From positions 1-24,887 of the forward strand of contig JBIOTN010000195.1 in assembly GCA_044866005.1 (NCBI GenBank): 24,887 nucleotides of DNA. The letters are read 5' to 3'. Made by a program: the position numbers and the translations under genes. This DNA comes from Candidatus Rokuibacteriota bacterium (lineage in GTDB: Bacteria > Methylomirabilota > Methylomirabilia > Rokubacteriales > DASRDR01). A model generated the notes under the pieces. It did no database searches. It was not told where the DNA came from and was given only the letters and a program-made list of their open reading frames with translations. How positions within the stretch are numbered: the stretch's first letter is position 1; each line of letters starts with the position of its first letter. Below, piece after piece: positions 5,849-24,887 of this stretch.

Positions 5849-8278
5849 ATGATGGGCGCATCGCCCCCTCGCAACCTCGCCGTCGTCGGGAAGCCGCTCC
5901 CCAAGGTCGACGCCTGGGCCAAGGTGACCGGCGAGACGAAGTACGCGGACGACCTCTTCCTCTCGCGGATGGCGTACGCGAAGATCCTCCGGGCCCAGCA
6001 CCCCCACGCCCGCATCCGCGGGATCGACACGCGCCGGGCGGCCGCCGTGCCCGGCGTCTACGCCGTCCTCACCGGGAGCGACTTCGCGCCCGTGAAGTTC
6101 GGCATCCTGCCGGTCAGCCAGGACGAGGAGGCGCTCTGCCGCGAGAAGGTGCGCTACGTGGGCGACCCGGTCGCGGCCGTGGCGGCGGTGGACGAGGAGA
6201 CGGCCGAGCGCGCCATGCACCTGATCGAGGTGGACTACGAGCCGCTGCCGCCCGTCATGTCGATCGACCAGGCTCTCGCCGGCGGGAGCCACCGCATCCA
6301 CGAGTACGGCGACGGCCACAACATCCACAAGCTGGTCTCCCTCGAGTTCGGCGACGTCGAGGAGGGGTTCCGCGCCGCCGACCTCGTCCGCGAGGACGTC
6401 TTCTTCTTCGAGGGGAACACGCACCTGCCGATGGAGCAGCACGCGGCCGTCGCGCAGTGGAGCCCGGAGGGGAAGCTGACCCTGTGGTCCTCGACCCAGA
6501 CGCCGCATTACGTCCACCGGGCCCTCGGCAAGGTGCTGGGGCTGCCCATGAGCCACATCCGGGTCATCGCGACGCCGAACGGCGGCGGCTTCGGCGGGAA
6601 GTCCGATCCGTTCAGCCACGAGCTCGTCGTGGCGCGGCTGGCCCAGCGGATCGGCCGGCCGGTGAAGACCACGCTCACCCGCGAGGAGGTCTTCTACGCC
6701 CACCGCGGGCGCCATCCGGTCCTCATGTGGATCCGGAGCGGCGTGAGGATGGACGGCGAGATCCTGGCGATCCACTTCCGCTCCTACCTCGACGGCGGCG
6801 CCTACGGCTCGTACGGCGTGGCCTCGACCTTCTACACCGGCGCGCTCCAGACGGTCACCTACAAGGTGCCGCGCTACAAGTTCGAGGGCTGCCGCGTCTT
6901 CACGAACAAGCCCCCCTGCGGCCCGAAGCGCGGCCACGGCACCCCGCAGCCTCGCTTCGCGCTGGAAGTCCACCTCGACAAGGTCGCCGCGGAGCTCGGC
7001 CTCGACCCGGCGGAGATGCGGCGCCGACACGCCGTGGACGAGCACACGAAGACGGTGAACCACCTCACGATCACGACGTCGGGGCTGCGCGAATGCCTCG
7101 ACCGGGTCGTCGCCGCGTCCGGCTGGCGGGAGAAGTTCGGACGGCTGCCCGGCGGCCGCGGGATCGGCCTCGCCGCCTCCTCGTACATCTCGGGCGCGGG
7201 CCTGCCGATCTACTGGAACGACATGCCCCATTCCGGCGTCATGGTGAAGCTCGACCGCGGCGGCGGCGTCGCGGCCTTCTGCGGCTCCATCGACATCGGG
7301 CAAGGCTCGGACTCGATCCTGGCCTACGTCGTCGCGGAAGTGCTGGGCATCCGGCCCGAGGACATCCGCGTGGTGACGGCCGACACGGACCTGACCCCCG
7401 TGGACCTCGGCTCCTACTCCTCGCGCGTGACGCTCATGAGCGGTAACGCGGCGAAGGAGGCGGCCGAGAAGCTGCGCGGGCTGCTCCTCGACGTCGCGGC
7501 GAAGAAGCTCGAGGTCTCGCCCGCGGACCTCGAAGCGCGGGACCGCCGGATCTTCGTGCGCGAGGACCCGGGGAGGGGGCTGGCCTTCGACGAGGCGGCG
7601 CGGCTGGCCGAGGCCGCGTACGGGACGCTCGTCGCCGCGGGCTCTTACACGCCGCCGAAGCGCGCCGCCCGGTTCAAGGGCGCGGGCGTGGGGCCCACCC
7701 CCGCCTACTCCTACTCGGCGTGCGTCGTCGAGCTCGCGGTGGACCGGGAGACGGGGGAGATCCGCATCGAGCGGATCTGGATCGCCCACGACGGGGGGAC
7801 GGCGATCAACCCCCTCCTCGTCGAGGGGCAGGTCGAGGGCTCGGTGTACATGGGGCTCGGCGAGGCGGTGATGGAGGAGCAAGTGTTCCGGCACGGGCTC
7901 CACAAGATCCCCTCGATGCTCGAGTACAAGAGCCCGACGACGCTCGAGACGCCCGAGATCACGACCTTCCTCGTCCAGACCCACGACCCCGAGGGTCCGT
8001 TCGGCGCGAAGGAGGCGGGGCAGGGTCCGCTCCTGCCGGTGATCCCGGCGATCGCCAACGCGGTCCACGACGCCGTCGGCGTGCGGATCGACGAGATCCC
8101 CATCACGCCGGAAAAGATCCTCAAGGCCTTCGACCTCCGGGCCCAGGGCCGGCCGGCCCGGGTCGGCCCCGAGCGGCTGCCGGACGTCGCGTTCCCGGAT
8201 CCCATCCGCGTGCCGCCGCCCTGGGTGGACCCGGAGGGCCGCGCCGCCACGGCCGTCCACGGACGGGCGAAGTCCTGA
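5849..8278 (+). CDS. Molybdopterin-binding large subunit of the same enzyme (HcrA/CoxL-like), 809 aa.
   Basis: N-terminus reads KPLPKVDAWAKVTGETKYADD. Also present are NGGGFGGKSD, the AhYVHRALG region, and the C-terminal aldehyde-oxidase/XDH a/b-hammerhead and MoCo domains. Confidence 0.9.
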   Translation: MMGASPPRNLAVVGKPLPKVDAWAKVTGETKYADDLFLSRMAYAKILRAQHPHARIRGIDTRRAAAVPGVYAVLTGSDFAPVKFGILPVSQDEEALCREKVRYVGDPVAAVAAVDEETAERAMHLIEVDYEPLPPVMSIDQALAGGSHRIHEYGDGHNIHKLVSLEFGDVEEGFRAADLVREDVFFFEGNTHLPMEQHAAVAQWSPEGKLTLWSSTQTPHYVHRALGKVLGLPMSHIRVIATPNGGGFGGKSDPFSHELVVARLAQRIGRPVKTTLTREEVFYAHRGRHPVLMWIRSGVRMDGEILAIHFRSYLDGGAYGSYGVASTFYTGALQTVTYKVPRYKFEGCRVFTNKPPCGPKRGHGTPQPRFALEVHLDKVAAELGLDPAEMRRRHAVDEHTKTVNHLTITTSGLRECLDRVVAASGWREKFGRLPGGRGIGLAASSYISGAGLPIYWNDMPHSGVMVKLDRGGGVAAFCGSIDIGQGSDSILAYVVAEVLGIRPEDIRVVTADTDLTPVDLGSYSSRVTLMSGNAAKEAAEKLRGLLLDVAAKKLEVSPADLEARDRRIFVREDPGRGLAFDEAARLAEAAYGTLVAAGSYTPPKRAARFKGAGVGPTPAYSYSACVVELAVDRETGEIRIERIWIAHDGGTAINPLLVEGQVEGSVYMGLGEAVMEEQVFRHGLHKIPSMLEYKSPTTLETPEITTFLVQTHDPEGPFGAKEAGQGPLLPVIPAIANAVHDAVGVRIDEIPITPEKILKAFDLRAQGRPARVGPERLPDVAFPDPIRVPPPWVDPEGRAATAVHGRAKS

Positions 8279-9411: not shown

Positions 9412-11091
9412 ATGAGCCTAGTGGGCGAGCCGGAGCGCACCGTGGTCGACTTCCGGACGGAGCCCGCCCGGTACCGGCACTGGACGCTCACCCTCGACGG
9501 CCGGGTGGCGACGCTCGCCATGGACGTCCAGGAGGACGGCGGGATCCGGCCCGGGTACGAGCTCAAGCTGAACTCCTACGACCTCGGGGTGGACATCGAG
9601 CTCGCCGACGCCGTCCAGCGCCTTCGGTTCGAGCACCCGGAGGTGGGCGCGGTCGTCGTGACGTCCGGGAAAGAGCGCGTCTTCTGCGCCGGGGCGAACA
9701 TCCGGATGCTCGGGCAGTCCAGCCACGCCTGGAAGGTGAACTTCTGCAAGTTCACCAACGAGACGCGGAACGCGATCGAGGAGGCGACCGCGGAGTCGCG
9801 GCAGACCTACCTCTGCGCGGTGGCGGGCGCCTGCGCCGGCGGCGGCTACGAGATCGCGCTGGCCACCGACTGGATCGTCATGGCCGACGACGGGAACACC
9901 GCGGTGTCGCTCCCCGAGGTCCCGCTCCTCGGCGTGCTGCCCGGGACGGGCGGGCTCGTGCGGCTGGTGGACAAGCGGAAGGTCCGGCGCGACCGCGCCG
10001 ACTTCTTCTGCACGGTCGAGGAGGGGGTCAAGGGCCAGCGCGCGCTCGACTGGGGCCTCGTCGACGAGCTGGTTCCCCGCTCGCGCCTCGCGGACGCGGC
10101 CCGGCGGCGGGCCGCGGAGCTGGCGGAGCGGAGCGACCGTCCGGCCGGCGCGCGCGGCATCCGGCTCACGCCGCTCGACCGGACGCTGGAGAACGATCGG
10201 ATCGCCTACCCGCACGTCGTGTGCGAGCTGGATCGCGGAGGAAACCGGGCCGAGATCACGATCACCGGGCCGGAGGCTCCGCCGCCGGCCGACCCGGCAG
10301 GCGTCCACGGCCTGGGGTGCGCGTTCTGGCCGCTGGCGGTCGCCCGCGCGCTCGACGACCTGATCCTCCACCTGCGCGTCAACGAGGAGGCCATCGGCGT
10401 CTGGGTCTTCCGCACGGTCGGCCGCGGCGACCTCGTCGAGGCCTACGACCGCCTGCTGGCGGCCCACGCCGCGGACTGGCTCGTCCGGGAGATCCGCCTC
10501 TACCTGCGCCGGACGCTCAAGCGTCTCGACGTCTCCTCGCGCTCCCTCGTGGCCCTCGTCGAGCCCGGCTCGTGCTTCGTCGGGACGCTGTTCGAGCTGG
10601 CCCTCGCCGCCGACCGGAGCTACATGCTGGAGGGGACCCGGGAGGGCGATGACCGGCCGCCGGCGGTGGTCCGGCTCGGCGAACTCAACTTCGGCGCCTA
10701 CCCGATGCCGAACGGCCTCACGCGGCTCCAGGGCCGGTTCCTGGGGGAGCCCGGCCGCGTGGACGAGCTGCGGGCGCGCCTCGGCGAGGAGCTCGACGCG
10801 GCCGCGGCCGACAAGGTCGGCCTCGTGACCTTCACCCCCGACGACATCGACTGGGACGACGAGGTGCGGATCGCCCTCGAGGAGCGCGCGGCGCTCTCGC
10901 CCGACGCCCTGACCGGCATGGAGGCCTCCCTCCGGTTCGGCGGCCCCGAGACCCAGGAGAGCAAGATCTTCGGCCGCCTCTCGGCCTGGCAGAACTGGAT
11001 CTTCCAGCGGCCGAACGCGGTCGGGGAGAAGGGCGCGCTGCGCGTCTACGGCAGCGGGCAGCGCGCCGAGTTCGATCGGAGGAGGGCCTGA
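9412..11091 (+). CDS. boxC: Benzoyl-CoA-dihydrodiol lyase / 2,3-epoxybenzoyl-CoA dihydrolase (BoxC), a crotonase-superfamily enzyme of 559 aa.
   Basis: Length and N-terminal motifs match BoxC (GYELKLNSYDLGVDIELADAVQRLRFEHPEV..VVTSGKERVFCAGANI; KVNFCKFTNETRN; LPEVPLLGVLPGTGGLVRLVDKRKVRRD). The start lies 4 nt after the stop of the preceding gene. Confidence 0.85.
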   Translation: MSLVGEPERTVVDFRTEPARYRHWTLTLDGRVATLAMDVQEDGGIRPGYELKLNSYDLGVDIELADAVQRLRFEHPEVGAVVVTSGKERVFCAGANIRMLGQSSHAWKVNFCKFTNETRNAIEEATAESRQTYLCAVAGACAGGGYEIALATDWIVMADDGNTAVSLPEVPLLGVLPGTGGLVRLVDKRKVRRDRADFFCTVEEGVKGQRALDWGLVDELVPRSRLADAARRRAAELAERSDRPAGARGIRLTPLDRTLENDRIAYPHVVCELDRGGNRAEITITGPEAPPPADPAGVHGLGCAFWPLAVARALDDLILHLRVNEEAIGVWVFRTVGRGDLVEAYDRLLAAHAADWLVREIRLYLRRTLKRLDVSSRSLVALVEPGSCFVGTLFELALAADRSYMLEGTREGDDRPPAVVRLGELNFGAYPMPNGLTRLQGRFLGEPGRVDELRARLGEELDAAAADKVGLVTFTPDDIDWDDEVRIALEERAALSPDALTGMEASLRFGGPETQESKIFGRLSAWQNWIFQRPNAVGEKGALRVYGSGQRAEFDRRRA

Positions 11092-12527
11092 TGGCCCCGG
11101 AGCGGACGATCGACTACGCCGAGCGGATCCCGAACAACGTCGGTCTGGCGGACAACCGCCGCCTGCTCCGGGCCCTCGAGGACTGGCAGCCGAAGTTCCT
11201 CCAGTGGTGGCACGAGATGGGGCCGGAGGGCTTCCAGGCCAAGGAGACGTACCTGCGGACCGCGGTGAGCGTCGACGCGCAGGGCTGGGCCCACTTCGAC
11301 TACGTCCGGATGCCCGACTACCGCTGGGGGATCTTCCTCGCCGAGGCCCAGCCCGGGCGGCTCGTCAACTTCGGCGCGCACAAGGGGCAGCCGGCCTGGC
11401 CGGACGTGCCGGGCGAGTACCGGGGCGTGCTCCGGCGCCTCATCGTCACCCAGGGGGATACCGAGCCCGCGTCGGTCGAGCAGCAGCGCCATCTCGGCCG
11501 GACCTGCCCGTCGCTCTACGACCTGCGCAACCTCTTCCAGGTCAACGTGGAAGAAGGCCGACACCTCTGGGCGATGGTCTACCTCCTCCACGCGCACTTC
11601 GGCCGCGACGGACGCGAGGAGGCGGAGGCGCTCCTCCAGCGCCGCTCGGGTGACCAGGACAAGCCGCGCATCCTGGGCGCCTTCAACGAGCGGACGCCCG
11701 ACTGGCTGGCCTTCTTCATGTTCACCTACTTCACGGACCGCGACGGCAAGTATCAGCTCTGCGGCCTGGCGGAGAGCGGCTTCGATCCCCTCGCTCGCAC
11801 CTGCCGGTTCATGCTGACCGAGGAGGCCCACCACATGTTCGTGGGCGAGACGGGCATCGGCCGGGTGGTCCAGCGCACCTGCGAGCTGATGCGCGAGCAC
11901 CGGACCGACGACGTCCGGAAGCACGGCGGGATCGACCTCCCGACCCTCCAGAAGTACCTGAACTTCCACTACTCGGTCTCGCTCGACCTGTTCGGGTCGG
12001 AGGTCTCCACCAACGCCGCCAACTTCTACACGTTCGGCCTGAAGGGGCGCTTCGAGGAGACGAAGCACGACGACGACCACGTGCTCAAGGACGCGATCTA
12101 CCCGGTCCTGCGCCTGGACGACGGGCGACTCGTGCCCCGGGAGGAGCCCGCCCTCGTCGCGCTGAACGAGCGACTCCGCGACGACTTCGTCGCCGACAGC
12201 CAGCGCGGGGTGGACCGCTGGAACCGGATCATCACGAAGCACGGCATCGACTTCGAGCTGCACCTGCCGCACAAGGCCTTCCATCGGGCGATCGGAACCT
12301 TCGCCGGTGCCCGCGTGTCGCCCGGAGGGGACGTCCTCCCCGAGGCGGAGTGGCAGGCCCGGCGCGACGAGTGGCTGCCGACGCGCGAGGACGAGGCCTT
12401 CGTGGCGAGCCTCATGACGCCGGTCGTCGAGCCCGGCAAGTTCGCGAGCTGGATCGCGCCGCCGCCGCGCGGGATCAACGGCAAGTCGATCGACTTCGAG
12501 TACGTCCGGCTCCGCGAGGCCGATTGA
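11091..12527 (+). CDS. boxB: Benzoyl-CoA 2,3-epoxidase (oxygenase) component BoxB, a di-iron enzyme of 478 aa.
   Basis: N-terminus IDYAERIPNNVGLADNRRLLRALEDWQPKFLQWWHEMGPEGF matches BoxB. The ATGA start/stop overlaps boxC. Confidence 0.9.
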   Translation: MAPERTIDYAERIPNNVGLADNRRLLRALEDWQPKFLQWWHEMGPEGFQAKETYLRTAVSVDAQGWAHFDYVRMPDYRWGIFLAEAQPGRLVNFGAHKGQPAWPDVPGEYRGVLRRLIVTQGDTEPASVEQQRHLGRTCPSLYDLRNLFQVNVEEGRHLWAMVYLLHAHFGRDGREEAEALLQRRSGDQDKPRILGAFNERTPDWLAFFMFTYFTDRDGKYQLCGLAESGFDPLARTCRFMLTEEAHHMFVGETGIGRVVQRTCELMREHRTDDVRKHGGIDLPTLQKYLNFHYSVSLDLFGSEVSTNAANFYTFGLKGRFEETKHDDDHVLKDAIYPVLRLDDGRLVPREEPALVALNERLRDDFVADSQRGVDRWNRIITKHGIDFELHLPHKAFHRAIGTFAGARVSPGGDVLPEAEWQARRDEWLPTREDEAFVASLMTPVVEPGKFASWIAPPPRGINGKSIDFEYVRLREAD

Positions 12528-12706
12528 CTTCGCCCAGCTTCGTCCTGCATCAGGGCCGGGACGCGCTCGGCCAGCGGCCTCGCGGCCGTCCCGGCCTGTG
12601 GGGTCGTCGTCGGCCCTCGACGCCGAACTCGTTCGCCGGGGGAGGCAGGCCCGAGCCGGTCGCTCGGGAGCGACCGGCCCGGCTTTGCCGGGAGGGCGGT
12701 CGGAGG
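12527..12706 (+). repeat. Copy 1 of a roughly 180-nt GC-rich structured intergenic element, sited directly after the boxB stop codon.
   Basis: About 55 nt are near-identical to 24724-24780 (GTCCTGCATCAsGGCCrGGACGCGCTCGGCCwGCGGCCTCGCGGCCGTCCCGGCC). The conserved GGGGGAGGCAGGCCCG block and two downstream hairpins are also shared. Confidence 0.6.
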
Positions 12707-12737
12707 GGGGCGTAGCCCCCCCTCCGAATTAGGGAAG

Positions 12738-13292
12738 ATGAGCCTGGGCGCGCGGATCAAAGGGCTGCGGACGGATCGCGGGATCCGGCAGAACGAGCTG
12801 GCGCAGAAGGCCGGCCTCACCCCGAGCCTCGTCTCCCAGATCGAGTCCGGCAAGCTCACGCCGTCGGTCCACACCCTGGGCCGGCTGGCGGGGGCCCTCG
12901 GTGTCCCCATCGGCGCGCTCTTCGACCAGAGCCCGAACGGCCGCCTCCACATCGGACGGAAGCGGGACTACGCCGTGGTGAGCTTCGAAGGGTCCGGCGA
13001 TCGCTGGGAGGTCCTGGCGGCCGGCCTCTTCCGCGGCAAGGTCCGCGCCGTCGTCTCGAGCCTCCGCGGTCGCGGCAAGAGCGTGCCGCCCGAGCGCGTG
13101 CTGATCGAGCCGGGGCAGATGAAGCTGATGTACGTGCTCCAGGGCAAGGTGGCGCTCCACTACGCAGGCGAGCGCCACCTCATGGCGCCCGGCGACTCGG
13201 CGTACCTGGACGGGGGCGTGCCCCACACCTGGGAGAACGTCGGGGCCGCCGAGGCCCGCACGCTCTGGGTCATCACGGGAAAGGACGAGTGA
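12738..13292 (+). CDS. XRE-family HTH transcriptional regulator with a C-terminal cupin sensor domain.
   Basis: N-terminal HTH_3 (LRTDRGIRQNELAQKAGLTPSLVSQIESGK). C-terminal cupin (LIEPGQMKLMYVLQGKVALHYAGERHLMAPGDSAYLDGGVPHTWENVG). Confidence 0.8.
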   Translation: MSLGARIKGLRTDRGIRQNELAQKAGLTPSLVSQIESGKLTPSVHTLGRLAGALGVPIGALFDQSPNGRLHIGRKRDYAVVSFEGSGDRWEVLAAGLFRGKVRAVVSSLRGRGKSVPPERVLIEPGQMKLMYVLQGKVALHYAGERHLMAPGDSAYLDGGVPHTWENVGAAEARTLWVITGKDE

Positions 13293-13445
13293 GCCCGCGC
13301 TGGAGGTCCGCCGGGTCGACGCCCCCGACCGGTCCACGAACGGCTCGCCGCGCTCGGCATCGGACGCTGCCGTGAGCCGTGGGATCGCGAGCGCGGCCGC
13401 GAGGGTCTTCGGCCGCGCCCGCGACACGGCCACCTAGGATGCCGG

Positions 13446-23461: not shown

Positions 23462-24608
23462 CATGCCCGACGTCGTCATCGTCGAAGCCGTCCGCTCCCC
23501 GGTCGGCCGCAAGAACGGCCGGCTGGCGGCGGTCCGCCCGGACGACCTCGCGGCGCACGTCCTGCGGGCCCTCGTCGAGCGGGCGGGCATCGAGCCGGCG
23601 GTGGTCGAGGACGTGATCCTGGGATGCGTCGACCAGGTCGGCGAGCAGGGGTTCAACATCGCGCGTAACGCCGCGTTGATCGCCGGCTTCCCGCTCGACG
23701 TCTGCGGCGTCACGCTCGACCGCATGTGCGGCTCCGGTCAGCAGGCGGCGAACTTCGGCTTCGGCATGGTGGCGGCGGGACAGCACGAGTGCGTCATCGT
23801 CGGCGGCGTCGAGAACATGAGCCGCGTGCCCATGGGCGCGAACGGCATCGGCCCGGGGGACGGTCCCATCAGCCCGAGGCTCGCCGAGCGCTACGACATC
23901 GTGCCGCAGGGGATCTCGGCCGAGCTGATCGCCGAGAAGTGGGGCCTCGGGCGCGCGGAGCTCGACGAGTTCGCGGCCCGGAGCCACGAGAGGGCCGGCC
24001 GCGCGATCGCGGAGGGGCGATTCGCTCGGGAGATCGTGCCGGTGGGGCTTCCGGACGGCTCCGCGTTCGGCGTCGACGAGGGCGTCCGGGTCCCGGTGAA
24101 TCGCGCGAAGATGGCCGGCCTCCCCCCCGCCTTCAAGCCCGACGGCGTCGTGACGGCCGGCAACTCGAGCCAGATCTCGGACGGCGCGGCGGCGCTCCTG
24201 CTGATGTCGCGCGAGAAGGCCCGCGCGCTCGGCGTGCGCCCGCGGGCGCGCTTCGTCGCCACGGCGCTGGCCGGCGTCGACCCCACGATCATGCTGACGG
24301 GGCCCATCCCGGCCACCCGGCGCGTGCTGGAGAAGGCGGGCCTCGCCCTCGCCGAGATGGCCCGCATCGAGATCAACGAGGCGTTCGCCTCCGTCGTCCT
24401 GGCCTGGGAGCGCGAGCTCGGCCCCGACATGGCGACCGTCAACGTCAACGGTGGCGCGATCGCCCTGGGGCACCCGCTCGGCTGCTCGGGGGCCAGGCTC
24501 CTCACGACGCTCCTCCACGAGCTCGAGCGGTGCGGCGGGCGGTTTGGCCTGCAGACCATGTGCATCGGGTTCGGGCAGGGCATCGCCACCATCATCGAGC
24601 GGCTCTGA
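23462..24608 (+). CDS. Acetyl-CoA C-acyltransferase (thiolase II), a candidate beta-ketoadipyl-CoA thiolase of the aromatic lower pathway.
   Basis: MPDVVIVEAVRSPVGRKNG is the N-terminus. The active-site Cys is in DRMCGSGQQA, and NVNGGAIALGHPLGCSGARL and CIGFGQG are present. A GGAGGAGG site lies 7 nt upstream. Confidence 0.9.
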
Positions 24609-24612
24609 CACC

Positions 24613-24696
24613 ATGGCCGGGTACTACTGTCCCCGCTGCAAGAAGACCGCGCCGCTCCAGAAGGTGTGCTGCGGCCGTCCCATGAAGAAGGGATGA
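24613..24696 (+). CDS. Possible 27-aa Cys4 zinc-ribbon microprotein, translationally coupled to the thiolase.
   Basis: MAGYYCPRCKKTAPLQKVCCGRPMKKG, with CPxC...CC. The ATG is 4 nt after the thiolase stop. There is no independent ribosome-binding site. Confidence 0.3.
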   Translation: MAGYYCPRCKKTAPLQKVCCGRPMKKG

Positions 24697-24705
24697 GCCC
24701 GGGCC

Positions 24706-24887
24706 GACTCGCGTCGCCCCGGGTCGTCCTGCATCACGGCCAGGACGCGCTCGGCCTGCGGCCTCGCGGCCGTCCCGGCCTCCGCGGTCGCCGCCGGGCC
24801 TCGGTACCCGGCGTCGTCCCGGGGGGAGGCAGGCCCGGTCCGTTCGCGGGAGAGCGAACGGCGCGGCTTTGCCGCGAGGGCCGTGGG
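24706..24887 (+). repeat. Copy 2 of the roughly 180-nt GC-rich structured element, truncated by the window edge and lying directly after the microprotein/thiolase stop.
   Basis: Same conserved 5' block and GGGGGAGGCAGGCCCG block as copy 1. Hairpins CCGTTCGC-GGGAGA-GCGAACGG and GCGGC-TTT-GCCGC correspond to GCCGGTCGC-TCGGGA-GCGACCGGC and CCGGC-TTT-GCCGG in copy 1. Confidence 0.6.

Follow-up and report, generated by a model that had tools for sequence, protein, structure and literature searches.

Two similar GC-rich sequences lie at the ends of two operons in a stretch of 24,887 nucleotides from a Candidatus Rokuibacteriota bacterium, which is referred to here as the window. One lies between boxB and a gene for an XRE-cupin regulator and the other follows the stop codon of a microprotein gene in the thiolase operon. 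The question that they raise is whether they are RNA elements serving these operons, small RNAs, or copies of a dispersed repeat. All three had been proposed in an earlier note made from the letters of the sequence, where a cis-acting RNA under selection was the preferred reading.

Results

Two copies of one repeat

Positions 12518–12703 and 24702–24887 align without a gap, at a fixed offset of 12184 nt and with 79% identity over 186 nt, and the repeat pair described in the earlier note at two operon ends is therefore real. The repeat search of the window returned it as two segments, 12518–12619 / 24702–24803 with 84% identity and 12633–12703 / 24817–24887 with 82%, and found no second repeat of comparable strength; in blastn within the set of loci, copy 1 matches copy 2 with E = 8e-42. 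The near-identical block is present at 12541–12597 in copy 1 and encloses the long inverted repeat GGCCGGGACG (12554–12563) / CGTCCCGGCC (12587–12596); in copy 2 the left arm reads GGCCAGGACG, giving a single A.C mismatch. The conserved block GGGGGAGGCAGGCCCG was also found in both copies (12638–12653 and 24822–24837). The two downstream hairpins do change in sequence and keep their pairing: the first is GCCGGTCGC/GCGACCGGC (12655–12663 / 12670–12678) in copy 1 and CCGTTCGC/GCGAACGG in copy 2, the second is CCGGC-TTT-GCCGG and GCGGC-TTT-GCCGC, respectively, and such hairpin-preserving double substitutions are seen again in further copies.

Both copies begin close to a stop codon, the boxB TGA (12525–12527) being inside copy 1 and the microprotein TGA (24694–24696) immediately before copy 2. 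Copy 1 is longer than had been stated; its full extent is from ~12515 to 12726, where a terminal G/C hairpin, CGGAGGGGGG-CGTA-GCCCCCCCTCCG (12701–12726), ends 11 nt upstream of the XRE ATG. The linker between the two (Table 1) carries the sole Shine–Dalgarno-like purine run for the XRE-cupin gene. The end of the window truncates copy 2, and the source contig stops 10 nt further on, within the homologous G-run.

Table 1 Modules of the two copies of the composite repeat in the window
Feature	Position	Strand	Details
R1/A left end, copy 1	12515–12540	+	R1-left profile match 12515–12554; covers the last four boxB codons (R-E-A-D) and supplies the TGA stop (12525–12527)
A module, copy 1	12541–12597	+	GTCCTGCATCA, 10-bp inverted repeat (12554–12563 / 12587–12596)
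A core, copy 1	12563–12586	+	24 nt, GCGCTCGGCCAGCGGCCTCGCGGC
D-module start (remnant), copy 1	12598–12637	+	GGGGTCGTCGTCGGCCCTCGACG...; matches L051:4720–4750 (GGGGTCGTCGTCGGCCCTCAACGTAC...)
G1 module, copy 1	12638–12726	-	Inverted relative to boxB; along the minus strand: G/C hairpin (12726–12701), junction stem, CCCGGC-AAA-GCCGGG (12692–12678), CCGGTCGC-TCCCGA-GCGACCGG (12678–12655), then GGGCCTGCCTCCCCC (12653–12638)
Linker	12727–12737	+	AATTAGGGAAG, 11 nt, between the repeat and the XRE-cupin ATG at 12738
R1/A left end, copy 2	24697–24724	+	Directly follows TGA 24694–24696; R1-left profile match 24695–24739
A module, copy 2	24725–24781	+	Ungapped alignment with 12541–12597
D-module remnant, copy 2	24782–24821	+	Ungapped alignment with 12598–12637; stretch of highest divergence
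G1 module, copy 2	24822–24887	-	Inverted; cut by the window end

The composite and its modules

The 180-nt element is not a single unit. It is a chimera of two modules that are found separately, nested or reordered elsewhere in Methylomirabilota, a truncated R1/A element (left end, A core and the start of D) being joined to an inverted, three-hairpin G1 at a motif common to both. The motif, within which the switch falls, is TCGGGCCGCCTCCTCCC in D and TCGGGCCTGCCTCCCCC in G1. Both window copies are without the R1 right end. At the other end of copy 2, the first ~12 nt of the R1/A left end (GCCCGGGCCG) are probably what is left of the beginning of the downstream gene that was displaced.

Twelve strong copies of the A module, at 10 loci, have a mutual identity of 90–95%. 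A occurs without G at six loci (L023, L024, L041, L046, L051 and L054), and in L019, L032 and L038 it is nested in the loop of the last hairpin of a sense-oriented G1. R1 in turn is found without A at L038:4267–4395, L024:1809–1937 and L065:13219–13460, and L051 has the arrangement A-D-A with two A units. The arrangement in the window, A (+) followed by G1 (−), is a mosaic with units in alternating orientation.

Filled and empty sites

The two window copies have been inserted at junctions where the genes of relatives overlap or are tightly spaced. The boxB–XRE spacer is 3 nt in L059–L062, 47 nt in one lineage (L056–L058) and 210 nt in the window, and the BoxB C-terminus is VRLD* in the orthologues versus VRLREAD* in the window. 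Copy 1 is an insertion that replaced the last boxB codon and the stop, and moved the XRE-cupin gene 210 nt off boxB. The site of copy 2 reads GGATGACGGGGCCCGGGCC in L069 and GGATGAGCGGGCCGCC in L072, where the ATG of a 2-hydroxyacid dehydrogenase gene overlaps the TGA. This overlap of the microprotein TGA with the next ATG is found throughout L069–71 and L072–74, and the gene tables give equally tight spacing at the site in the contigs with P0123 and P0126; counted together, four other lineages have the junction in this form. Outside the window, the rplC–rplD spacer of 4 nt in L023 compares with 210 nt (stop to ATG) in L054, where it is filled by an R1/A element, and in L064–68 an independent G2 insertion lies within the microprotein gene with a flanking duplication of 27/29 nt.

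Direct repeats at the borders measure 14/14 nt in L046a, 27/29 nt in L064 and 11/12 nt around A in L019, and ones of ~8 nt also occur; they are partial in L051 and L054b, and none was found in window copy 1, L023a, L038b or L041. No target-site duplication of constant length emerged across the copies examined. Since the border repeats vary in length and are missing in several copies, including window copy 1, classical transposition is at most putative. Target-site duplications or terminal inverted repeats had been named beforehand as signs of a plain MITE; some copies do have direct repeats, and R1 has complementary ends, but the lengths of the repeats vary and the ends differ.

Distribution and orientation

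The earlier note had also allowed that only these two copies might exist. This is not the case: genomes and metagenomes of Methylomirabilota have related modules at a minimum of ten further loci, the gene contexts of which are unrelated. We count ~25 module instances in the spacers of 12 loci, including those of ribosomal-protein operons, a figure that covers fragments of genomes and copies close enough to be met by the exact patterns of the two large DNA scans. L064 and L065 hold 3–4 elements per ~21 kb, and no elements were found in 92.8 kb from six sister lineages. The source names of the homologues are Methylomirabilota or Rokubacteria (L023 included). Exact-pattern matches were also obtained in other phyla, and many of these are due to chance in GC-rich coding sequence. 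Phage, plasmid and viral collections gave no match to the elements, and a phage or plasmid origin was rejected on this basis.

[quoted passage not shown] All 12 clear cases have the orientation of the upstream gene, and the one antisense instance is a degenerate fragment. The flanking genes of R1/A are on the same strand wherever both flanks are clear (for example, rpsJ–rplC, rplC–rplD, boxB–XRE and gatC–gatA), and the host operons are unrelated, encoding ribosomal proteins, ABC transporters and gatC–gatA. The G modules occur in both orientations (~6 sense and 4 antisense); those in sense orientation have hairpins that begin 6–8 nt after the stop codon in 5/5 cases.

Structure and compensatory change

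Compensatory changes maintain the pairing of G1 and of the R1 terminal rod but not that of the long inverted repeat of A. In five copies of G1, 95.8% of the cells are paired and 4/19 pairs are compensated; the corresponding values for the end-to-end rod of R1 are 88% and 8/19, and for both the score was reached by 0/500 shuffles. Full R1 copies have complementary ends of 11–13 bp, the sequences of which differ between copies and covary. The inverted repeat of A (12 copies) has 91.5% paired cells, 0 compensated cells and 10 broken cells; there is no covariation in it and RNAalifold does not predict the stem. Compensation had been called the hallmark of selection on RNA structure. This applies to the two small hairpins (4/19 pairs, 0/500 shuffles) but not to the long inverted repeat with its 0 compensated cells. 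As regards an operon RNA, the compensation of the hairpins is real, but the G1 module to which they belong is antisense in the window and present in both orientations elsewhere.

Taken separately, the modules have exceptionally stable folds, with z = −4.3 and, for G1, −4.9. The whole composite gives z of only −1.2 and −1.4, and an exceptional fold of the entire composite was rejected.

Tests for known RNAs, signals and coding

The Rfam match that had been sought was not obtained: nothing in the window or in 9 related loci reached the gathering score, the best match, RF01736 (flg-Rhizobiales), having 28.7 bits against a gathering threshold of 55 with 42 model positions skipped. Permissive Rfam scans of the window stretch and the same number of related loci returned nothing usable, and a known RNA family was rejected. 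The proposal of a terminator fared no better, with 0 intrinsic terminator sites on both strands of 12300–12900; the hairpins are followed by GAAUUAGGG and no U run. No promoter-like site was found either, and both kinds of signal were rejected. Neither R'/R'' core sites, as in integron attC sites, nor regular spacing, as in CRISPR repeats, is visible in the elements.

Long open frames are present on both strands of the repeat, and annotators called a 90-codon minus-strand ORF over copy 2 at the contig end. Between copy 1 and copy 2, amino-acid identity in the six frames is 56–69% versus a nucleotide identity of 79%, and in every frame the non-synonymous codon changes outnumber the synonymous ones. 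A Pfam search with the minus-strand ORF of copy 1 gave no match. Coding on either strand was rejected from the substitution pattern and the lack of a Pfam match for the long minus-strand ORF.

Discussion

We conclude, with a probability of about 0.78, that the two sequences in the window are copies of a composite non-coding interspersed repeat, which belongs to a modular, hairpin-rich intergenic family restricted to some Methylomirabilota (Rokubacteria) lineages. Among the candidates named earlier, this supports the REP/MITE-like dispersed repeat, with modules at 10 or more other loci and both window sites empty in orthologues. The composite would have formed once and then been copied to the second locus. 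Spread appears to be by copy-and-paste aimed at stop/start junctions, and copying may sometimes duplicate 12–29 nt of the target, by which both flanking genes would keep their signals. The elements are presumably co-transcribed with their host operons, and their effects would be by-products of stable hairpins. These would uncouple translation of the adjacent genes, may block 3' exonucleases and may stall terminating ribosomes, as has been reported for REP hairpins near stop codons (PMC12306157). That the elements evolved as a regulator of the box or thiolase operons is improbable. As a counterpoint, the strong compensation in the R1 rod and G1 and the strict sense orientation of R1/A also fit a selected RNA-level role.

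Such a role would be that of a cis-acting structured RNA serving its operons, as a 3'-UTR or intercistronic stabiliser, a processing site or a U-less terminator. R1/A is sense-oriented and placed at the stop codon, compensatory changes are found in G1 and the R1 rod, the module folds are very stable, and the sense G hairpins, 6–8 nt past the stop in 5/5 cases, are within the range reported for ribosome stalling by REP (PMC12306157). However, the same junctions are without elements in close relatives, the host operons are unrelated (ribosomal proteins, ABC transporters, gatC–gatA), G1 is antisense in both window copies, a U-tract terminator is absent, the composite folds are no better than shuffles (z = −1.2 and −1.4) and there is no Rfam family. 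We therefore think a selected cis-acting RNA unlikely, and a 3'-UTR stabiliser in the sense of a dedicated operon RNA is not supported, the sites being empty in relatives and G1 antisense here. Survival inside operons would have another reason if R1/A were a translational coupler like MIRU, with a throw-away ORF that runs from the upstream stop to the downstream start and hands ribosomes over across the insertion. For MIRUs, insertion has been reported to occur at start codons, and the ORF inside them to be coupled at −4 nt (PMC12548453; PMC3184786). R1/A is sense-only, and a frame starts with ATG, GTG or TTG at −1 to +9 nt from the upstream stop in 9/9 complete spacers, the start contexts being TTGA, ATGA and GTGA overlaps or a conserved TAG-YGCC-RTG. 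In 7/9 spacers the frame is open to ~−25 to +10 nt of the next start, and it ends in an NTGA overlap with that start in L051, L038b and L065c and as TAG-4 nt-GTG in L046a. Yet open frames are expected from composition (A = 8%), 22/27 sense frames being open across the spacers, and any of 3/4 nucleotides preceding TGA gives a start codon by chance. Depletion of stops on the sense strand, looked for as a sign of translation, was not found (18 stop trinucleotides vs 22 expected, and 25 vs 27.7 on the antisense strand); across the copies, each of the three frames is used to read the A core, and in the window copies amino-acid identity is never above nucleotide identity in any frame. Coupling is accordingly a tentative reading that we doubt.

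The interspersed repeat that we favour need not be a classical MITE, that is, a shortened (deletion) form of an insertion sequence that the transposase of the parent mobilises in trans, with inverted repeats at its ends and a target-site duplication of fixed length. The 11–13-bp complementary ends of full R1 elements, the existence of filled and empty sites and the direct repeats flanking some copies would be expected of one, but the terminal arms differ between copies and are kept complementary by compensation, where a sequence bound by a transposase would be conserved. The direct repeats are of 14, ~12, ~8 or 29 nt or absent, the window copies are without one R1 end and no parent insertion sequence is known, which makes a classical MITE rather improbable. 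We give similarly little weight to R1/A being an undescribed mobile class that seeks operon junctions without a classical transposase and is kept through its RNA rod and a throw-away ORF coupling the flanking genes. Such an element would insert a few codons into the downstream gene, a variable duplication of 10–30 nt would regenerate the overlapping stop/start, and spread might be, for example, via microhomology-driven template switching at hairpins or an unusual integrase. Least credible by far is a small protein gene or trans-acting small RNA gene in two copies: the annotated 90-codon minus-strand ORF over copy 2 and the long open frames on both strands suggest it, but the substitution pattern goes the other way in all six frames (an excess of non-synonymous changes, and amino-acid identity lower than that of the nucleotides), and Pfam gave no match for the minus-strand ORF of copy 1. 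Neither a promoter nor a terminator was found and the modules are shuffled between loci, so the small RNA put forward earlier is not supported.

The interspersed repeat resembles MIRU, REP/BIME and BOX, and we regard it as a new example of the familiar bacterial 'junk-plus-side-effects' element. Mycobacterial interspersed repetitive units (MIRU; Supply et al. 1997, as summarised in PMC3184786 and PMC12548453), of 40–100+ nt, are likewise GC-rich, located in spacers between genes of one operon and, as R1/A, always oriented the same way with respect to transcription. At their ends they overlap the stop and start codons of adjacent genes, a given site may be filled in one species and empty in a related one, imperfect inverted repeats occur at the ends and internally, and tandem copies are sometimes found, as with the two A units of L051. 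The two families, however, share no sequence similarity and belong to hosts of different phyla; at 120–320 nt the present elements are larger, and they are mosaic with nested modules, the G-type modules are in both orientations, and the direct repeats are up to 29 nt or absent, where those of MIRU are tetranucleotides. As to the MIRU ORF, candidate stop/start-overlapping frames are present in 7–9 of 9 spacers here, as expected from composition, and coupling is putative.

REP/BIME elements of enterobacteria and pseudomonads share the extragenic GC-rich hairpins, often right after stop codons and within operons, the repetition of short imperfect palindromes (~25 instances in the spacers of 12 loci in the present case), the mosaics with units in opposite orientation and the absence from some orthologous sites. 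They differ in having a conserved GTAG-type head, whereas no such head was seen in the copies that were read. The present units are also longer than those of REP/BIME and include a class found strictly in sense orientation, and the copy number, judged from genome fragments, appears much lower. BOX of Streptococcus pneumoniae is also modular (boxA, boxB, boxC), with a variable number and order of modules, predicted stable RNA folds and an intergenic position with co-transcription, which is presumed here. Its sequences are unrelated, its host is of low GC, its order is fixed as A-Bn-C, and a mobilising insertion sequence has been proposed for it. Correia and ERIC-type MITEs have the length (100–200 nt), the complementary ends folding into a rod and the insertion beside genes with co-transcription (again presumed here), but conserved terminal inverted repeats and a fixed TA duplication take the place of the covarying ends and variable duplications seen here.

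To our knowledge, no interspersed repeat family has been described for Methylomirabilota, and none of the searchable literature was found to link Rokubacteria or Methylomirabilota with REP or MITE elements. With clean filled and empty sites in ribosomal-protein operons, covarying rods and long, variable duplications, the family would be a tractable example for studying how elements enter operon junctions without killing the adjacent genes. For annotation, spacers with these elements should not be made into gene calls, as was done with the 90-codon ORF over copy 2, nor should the elements be taken for riboswitches or terminators specific to an operon. Assemblies are broken by them as well, as in copy 2, where the source contig ends. 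Copy 1 is an example of an insertion that rewrites the C-terminus and stop codon of BoxB, and because it separates from boxB a regulator gene that is tightly coupled to it in relatives, regulation of the box pathway may differ in this lineage.

Repeat pair in the window

The two regions of about 180 nt that follow the boxB stop (copy 1) and the stop of the microprotein gene behind the thiolase (copy 2) form a true repeat: they align without gaps, always 12184 nt apart. A repeat search of the window gave 84% identity between 12518–12619 and 24702–24803 and 82% between 12633–12703 and 24817–24887, and found no second repeat of comparable level within the window; overall the copies are 79% identical over 186 nt (blastn E = 8e-42). 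As the earlier note had described, both contain a near-identical block of ~55 nt with a 10-bp inverted repeat, the conserved block GGGGGAGGCAGGCCCG and two small hairpins whose stems carry paired substitutions between the copies. Copy 1 reaches further than first thought, from ~12515, within the last boxB codons, to a G/C hairpin, CGGAGGGGGG-CGTA-GCCCCCCCTCCG (12701–12726), that ends 11 nt from the XRE-cupin ATG (12738). It is identical in three further assemblies (L002–L004) and is thus no assembly artefact. Copy 2 is truncated by the window end (24887). The source contig, JBIOYM010000168.1 (GCA_044870165.1; locus L001), stops 10 nt past the window, within a run of 11 G (L001:11425–11435) that belongs to the homologous terminal hairpin; assembly probably broke at the repeat or at the homopolymer. 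At this contig end, an ORF of 90 codons is annotated on the minus strand over copy 2.

By the source names of close homologues, the organism belongs to Methylomirabilota, alias Rokubacteria. The microprotein (MAGYYCPRCKKTAPLQKVCCGRPMKKG) lies 3' of the thiolase in every orthologous locus and was at no locus annotated as a separate gene by gene callers.

Positions of genes, modules, spacers and direct repeats (plain coordinates, window; L numbers, other loci in Methylomirabilota genomes and metagenomes, with a or b for separate elements in one locus)
Feature	Position	Details
Molybdenum hydroxylase, with FAD subunit	5849–8278	Pfam
Enoyl-CoA hydratase-type protein, boxC position	9412–11091	Pfam
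BoxB of the earlier note, 478 aa	11091–12527	no Pfam match
XRE-cupin regulator	12738–13292	Pfam
Sigma-54 activator		Pfam
Thiolase	23463–24608	Pfam
Zinc-ribbon microprotein, 27 codons, after thiolase	24613–24696; L069:11157–11240; L072:5153–5236	
Module A	12541–12597	
Module G1	12638–12726	right half of the element first described
R1 examples	L038:4267–4395; L024:1809–1937; L023:823–1006(-); L065:13219–13460	
boxB–XRE-cupin spacer	L059, L060, L061	boxB stop TAG; 3 nt
boxB–XRE-cupin spacer	L062	boxB stop TGA; 3 nt
boxB–XRE-cupin spacer	L056–L058	boxB stop TGA; 47 nt, unrelated sequence
boxB–XRE-cupin spacer	window	boxB stop TGA; 210 nt
Direct repeat	L046a	14/14 nt, CCGTGAGGGGCCGG, spans GTGA overlap
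Direct repeat	L064	27/29 nt
Direct repeat	L019, around nested A core	11/12 nt
Direct repeat	L051, L054b	partial

A mosaic of modules

The window pair are chimeric copies from a new, lineage-restricted mosaic hairpin repeat family in Methylomirabilota, and the last of the earlier candidates, a REP/MITE-like dispersed repeat, was the right one. An exact pattern scanned against the genome collection yielded L019, L024, L032 and L038 in one MAG and L023 in a Rokubacteria MAG, besides ~30 chance matches in other GC-rich phyla; a loop-placed pattern that left the stem arms free, run against metagenomes, gave four more loci with five copies (L041, L046, L051 with two copies, L054). From reading these loci, what had been taken for a single ~180-nt element is really two distinct modules, A and G1. 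Module A occurs without the remainder of the composite in L023, L024, L041, L046, L054 and, twice in tandem, L051, and in L019, L032 and L038 the orientation of G1 relative to A is opposite to that in the window, with A within the loop of the last G1 hairpin. A is mostly embedded in a larger backbone, R1, whose conserved left end (stop codon, YGCCGTGGCCGAT, CCCGTCGCATC, GCGTCCTC) pairs with a conserved right end (CCTGCGTCCT..GCTGCTCGGGTCTCGGCC...) and whose interior holds variable hairpin modules (A, a "D" hairpin and others). The window copies run from the R1 left end through A and the first part of D to an inverted G1, and the switch falls within a motif common to D and G1 (TCGGGCCGCCTCCTCCC / TCGGGCCTGCCTCCCCC). 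Since both copies have this junction without an indel, the chimera formed a single time and was copied afterwards. Another G subfamily, G2, is found in L046, L054 and L064. One R1 element in L065 holds a 49-nt palindromic module (GCGCGCCCCGGRCGGCGGGGCCCCAGCCCCGCGACGYCCGGCGGCGCGC) twice (13287–13335 and 13371–13419), so that further module types nest in the backbone. The 24-nt core of A, GCGCTCGGCCNNCGGCCTCGCGGC, also occurs in other repeat contexts on unrelated metagenome contigs (L042:10937–11016, with an inverted copy close by; L045:6966–6989; L049:1107–1170, twice in tandem units of ~45 nt), which may be other repeat families with a common motif, or chance.

Filled and empty junctions

Judged by orthologous junctions, both window copies are insertions. 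Box clusters reached through XRE-cupin protein homologues have short boxB–XRE-cupin spacers (Table), and their BoxB ends in ...DFEYVRLD* (or ...VRS*) against ...DFEYVRLREAD* in the window; the element has therefore replaced the last boxB codon and stop and provides a new TGA. The 3' end so made, CCGCGAGGCCG (12512–12522), is complementary over all 11 nt to the invariant segment CGGCCTCGCGG of the A core (12577–12587), in copy 1 only, and this pairing could sequester the stop-codon region in the mRNA. The 47-nt spacer of L056 (3805–3851), from a sister lineage, has its own small hairpin (GCGACA-ACCT-GTCGC) and a stretch, GCGAGGCCTGAC, similar to the left junction in the window, GCGAGGCCGATTGAC; the likeness may go back to a remnant of the ancestral spacer, or to chance.

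For copy 2, the orthologous loci reached via thiolase homologues (L069–71, L072–74) have a microprotein gene that ends GGATGA, its TGA overlapped by the ATG of a 2-hydroxyacid dehydrogenase, and gene tables give the same tight spacing on two further contigs. In the window the sequence after the microprotein ATGA (GCCCGGGCCG...) still resembles the dehydrogenase gene start (L072: ATGAGCGGGCCGCC) before the repeat begins; the downstream gene is beyond the contig end. Elsewhere, the rplC–rplD spacer is 4 nt in L023 and 210 nt (stop to ATG) in L054, where it holds an R1/A element. In L064–L068 the microprotein gene is interrupted by a G2 element, on either side of which the first 29 nt of the gene are duplicated (27/29 nt); an intact gene copy is thereby regenerated downstream.

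Distribution, position and orientation

The L064/L065 lineage has 3–4 elements in about 21 kb and there is none in 92.8 kb from six lineages chosen solely for an XRE or thiolase orthologue; the family is thus patchy and lineage-restricted. Viral contigs, phages and plasmids gave no match, and a literature search found no paper on repeats in Methylomirabilota.

R1/A elements start at the upstream stop codon. Seven begin with TAG, and in six of these YGCC-RTG-(G)CCGAT comes immediately after it (the exception, L024a, is diverged); five have TGA, with CCGGGCCGAY following within a few nt. By GC3, open frames and the gene tables, 12 clear cases run in the same sense as the upstream gene; the one exception, a degenerate A-like fragment directly upstream of tuf (L023:2549–2610), is antisense. 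Within this fragment GTCCTCCAT reads ATGGAGGAC on the tuf strand and puts a GGAGGA Shine-Dalgarno-like run ~9 nt ahead of the tuf ATG. Of the G modules, about six are sense, with a first hairpin beginning 6–8 nt past the stop codon, and about four, both window copies among them, are antisense.

Conservation of structure

The compensatory changes reported earlier hold for the G1 hairpins and extend to five copies, but are absent from the A inverted repeat. In G1, 95.8% of cells are paired, 4/19 pairs are doubly substituted (C-G, G-C and U-A states) and the covariation score was reached by 0/500 shuffles. The R1 end-to-end rod, predicted independently by RNAalifold, has 88% of cells paired and 8/19 pairs compensated in seven copies, a score again reached by 0/500 shuffles and far above slid controls. 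As the samples are small and made up of related sequences, this covariation is an indication, not proof. Across 12 copies, the A inverted repeat has 91.5% of cells paired, ten cells broken and no compensated pair, and RNAalifold did not choose its stem; the A core is kept as sequence, not structure, a conservation partly due to pattern-based copy finding, with unforced flanks nearly invariant too. Taken singly, modules fold much better than shuffled sequences (z = −4.3 and −4.9); the whole window composite does not (z = −1.2 and −1.4). The kept hairpins fit selection on RNA and selection on single-stranded DNA hairpins, of the kind used by hairpin-recognising transposases, equally well.

Other identities were rejected. 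Rfam, a check proposed at the outset, gave no family at threshold (best sub-threshold, flg-Rhizobiales, 28.7 bits against 55, with 42 model positions skipped), and no terminator-like or sigma-70-like site was found. The repeat is not coding: in all six frames the copies are less alike in amino acids (56–69% identity) than in nucleotides (79%), and more codon changes are non-synonymous than synonymous.

Spread and possible effects

At some copies, direct repeats on both sides take in the stop/start junction (Table); border comparison revealed none at other copies, including window copy 1. Being variable or missing, they differ from the constant-length duplication that a classical transposase leaves. 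In several cases the target looks like the left end of the element itself (L054b: TAGCGCCGTGCCGA vs TAGAGCCATGCCGA). We infer that the elements spread by copy-and-paste directed at gene junctions, their products surviving when both flanking genes retain their signals.

MIRUs are described as inserting at start codons and carrying a coupled internal ORF (PMC12548453; PMC3184786). Every complete spacer here has a frame starting at or beside the upstream stop, most reaching the downstream start, which recalls MIRUs; a base composition with A = 8%, however, leaves nearly all frames open, and sense-strand stops are not depleted, so that a coupled ORF across the spacer is possible but unsupported. 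By analogy with REP elements (PMC12306157), stable hairpins so near stop codons may stall ribosomes at termination or block 3' exonucleases. The mosaic family is closest in behaviour to MIRUs in its R1/A part and to REP/BIME or BOX in its G hairpins and mosaic build, with no sequence in common with any of them. Its main practical value is for annotation, and it also supplies operon junctions, filled and empty, that form a clean system. Three spacers with differently built elements (12528–12737, L054:822–1031 and L019) are exactly 210 nt and a fourth, rpsJ–rplC in L023, is 207 nt; six of the eight measured spacers are multiples of three.
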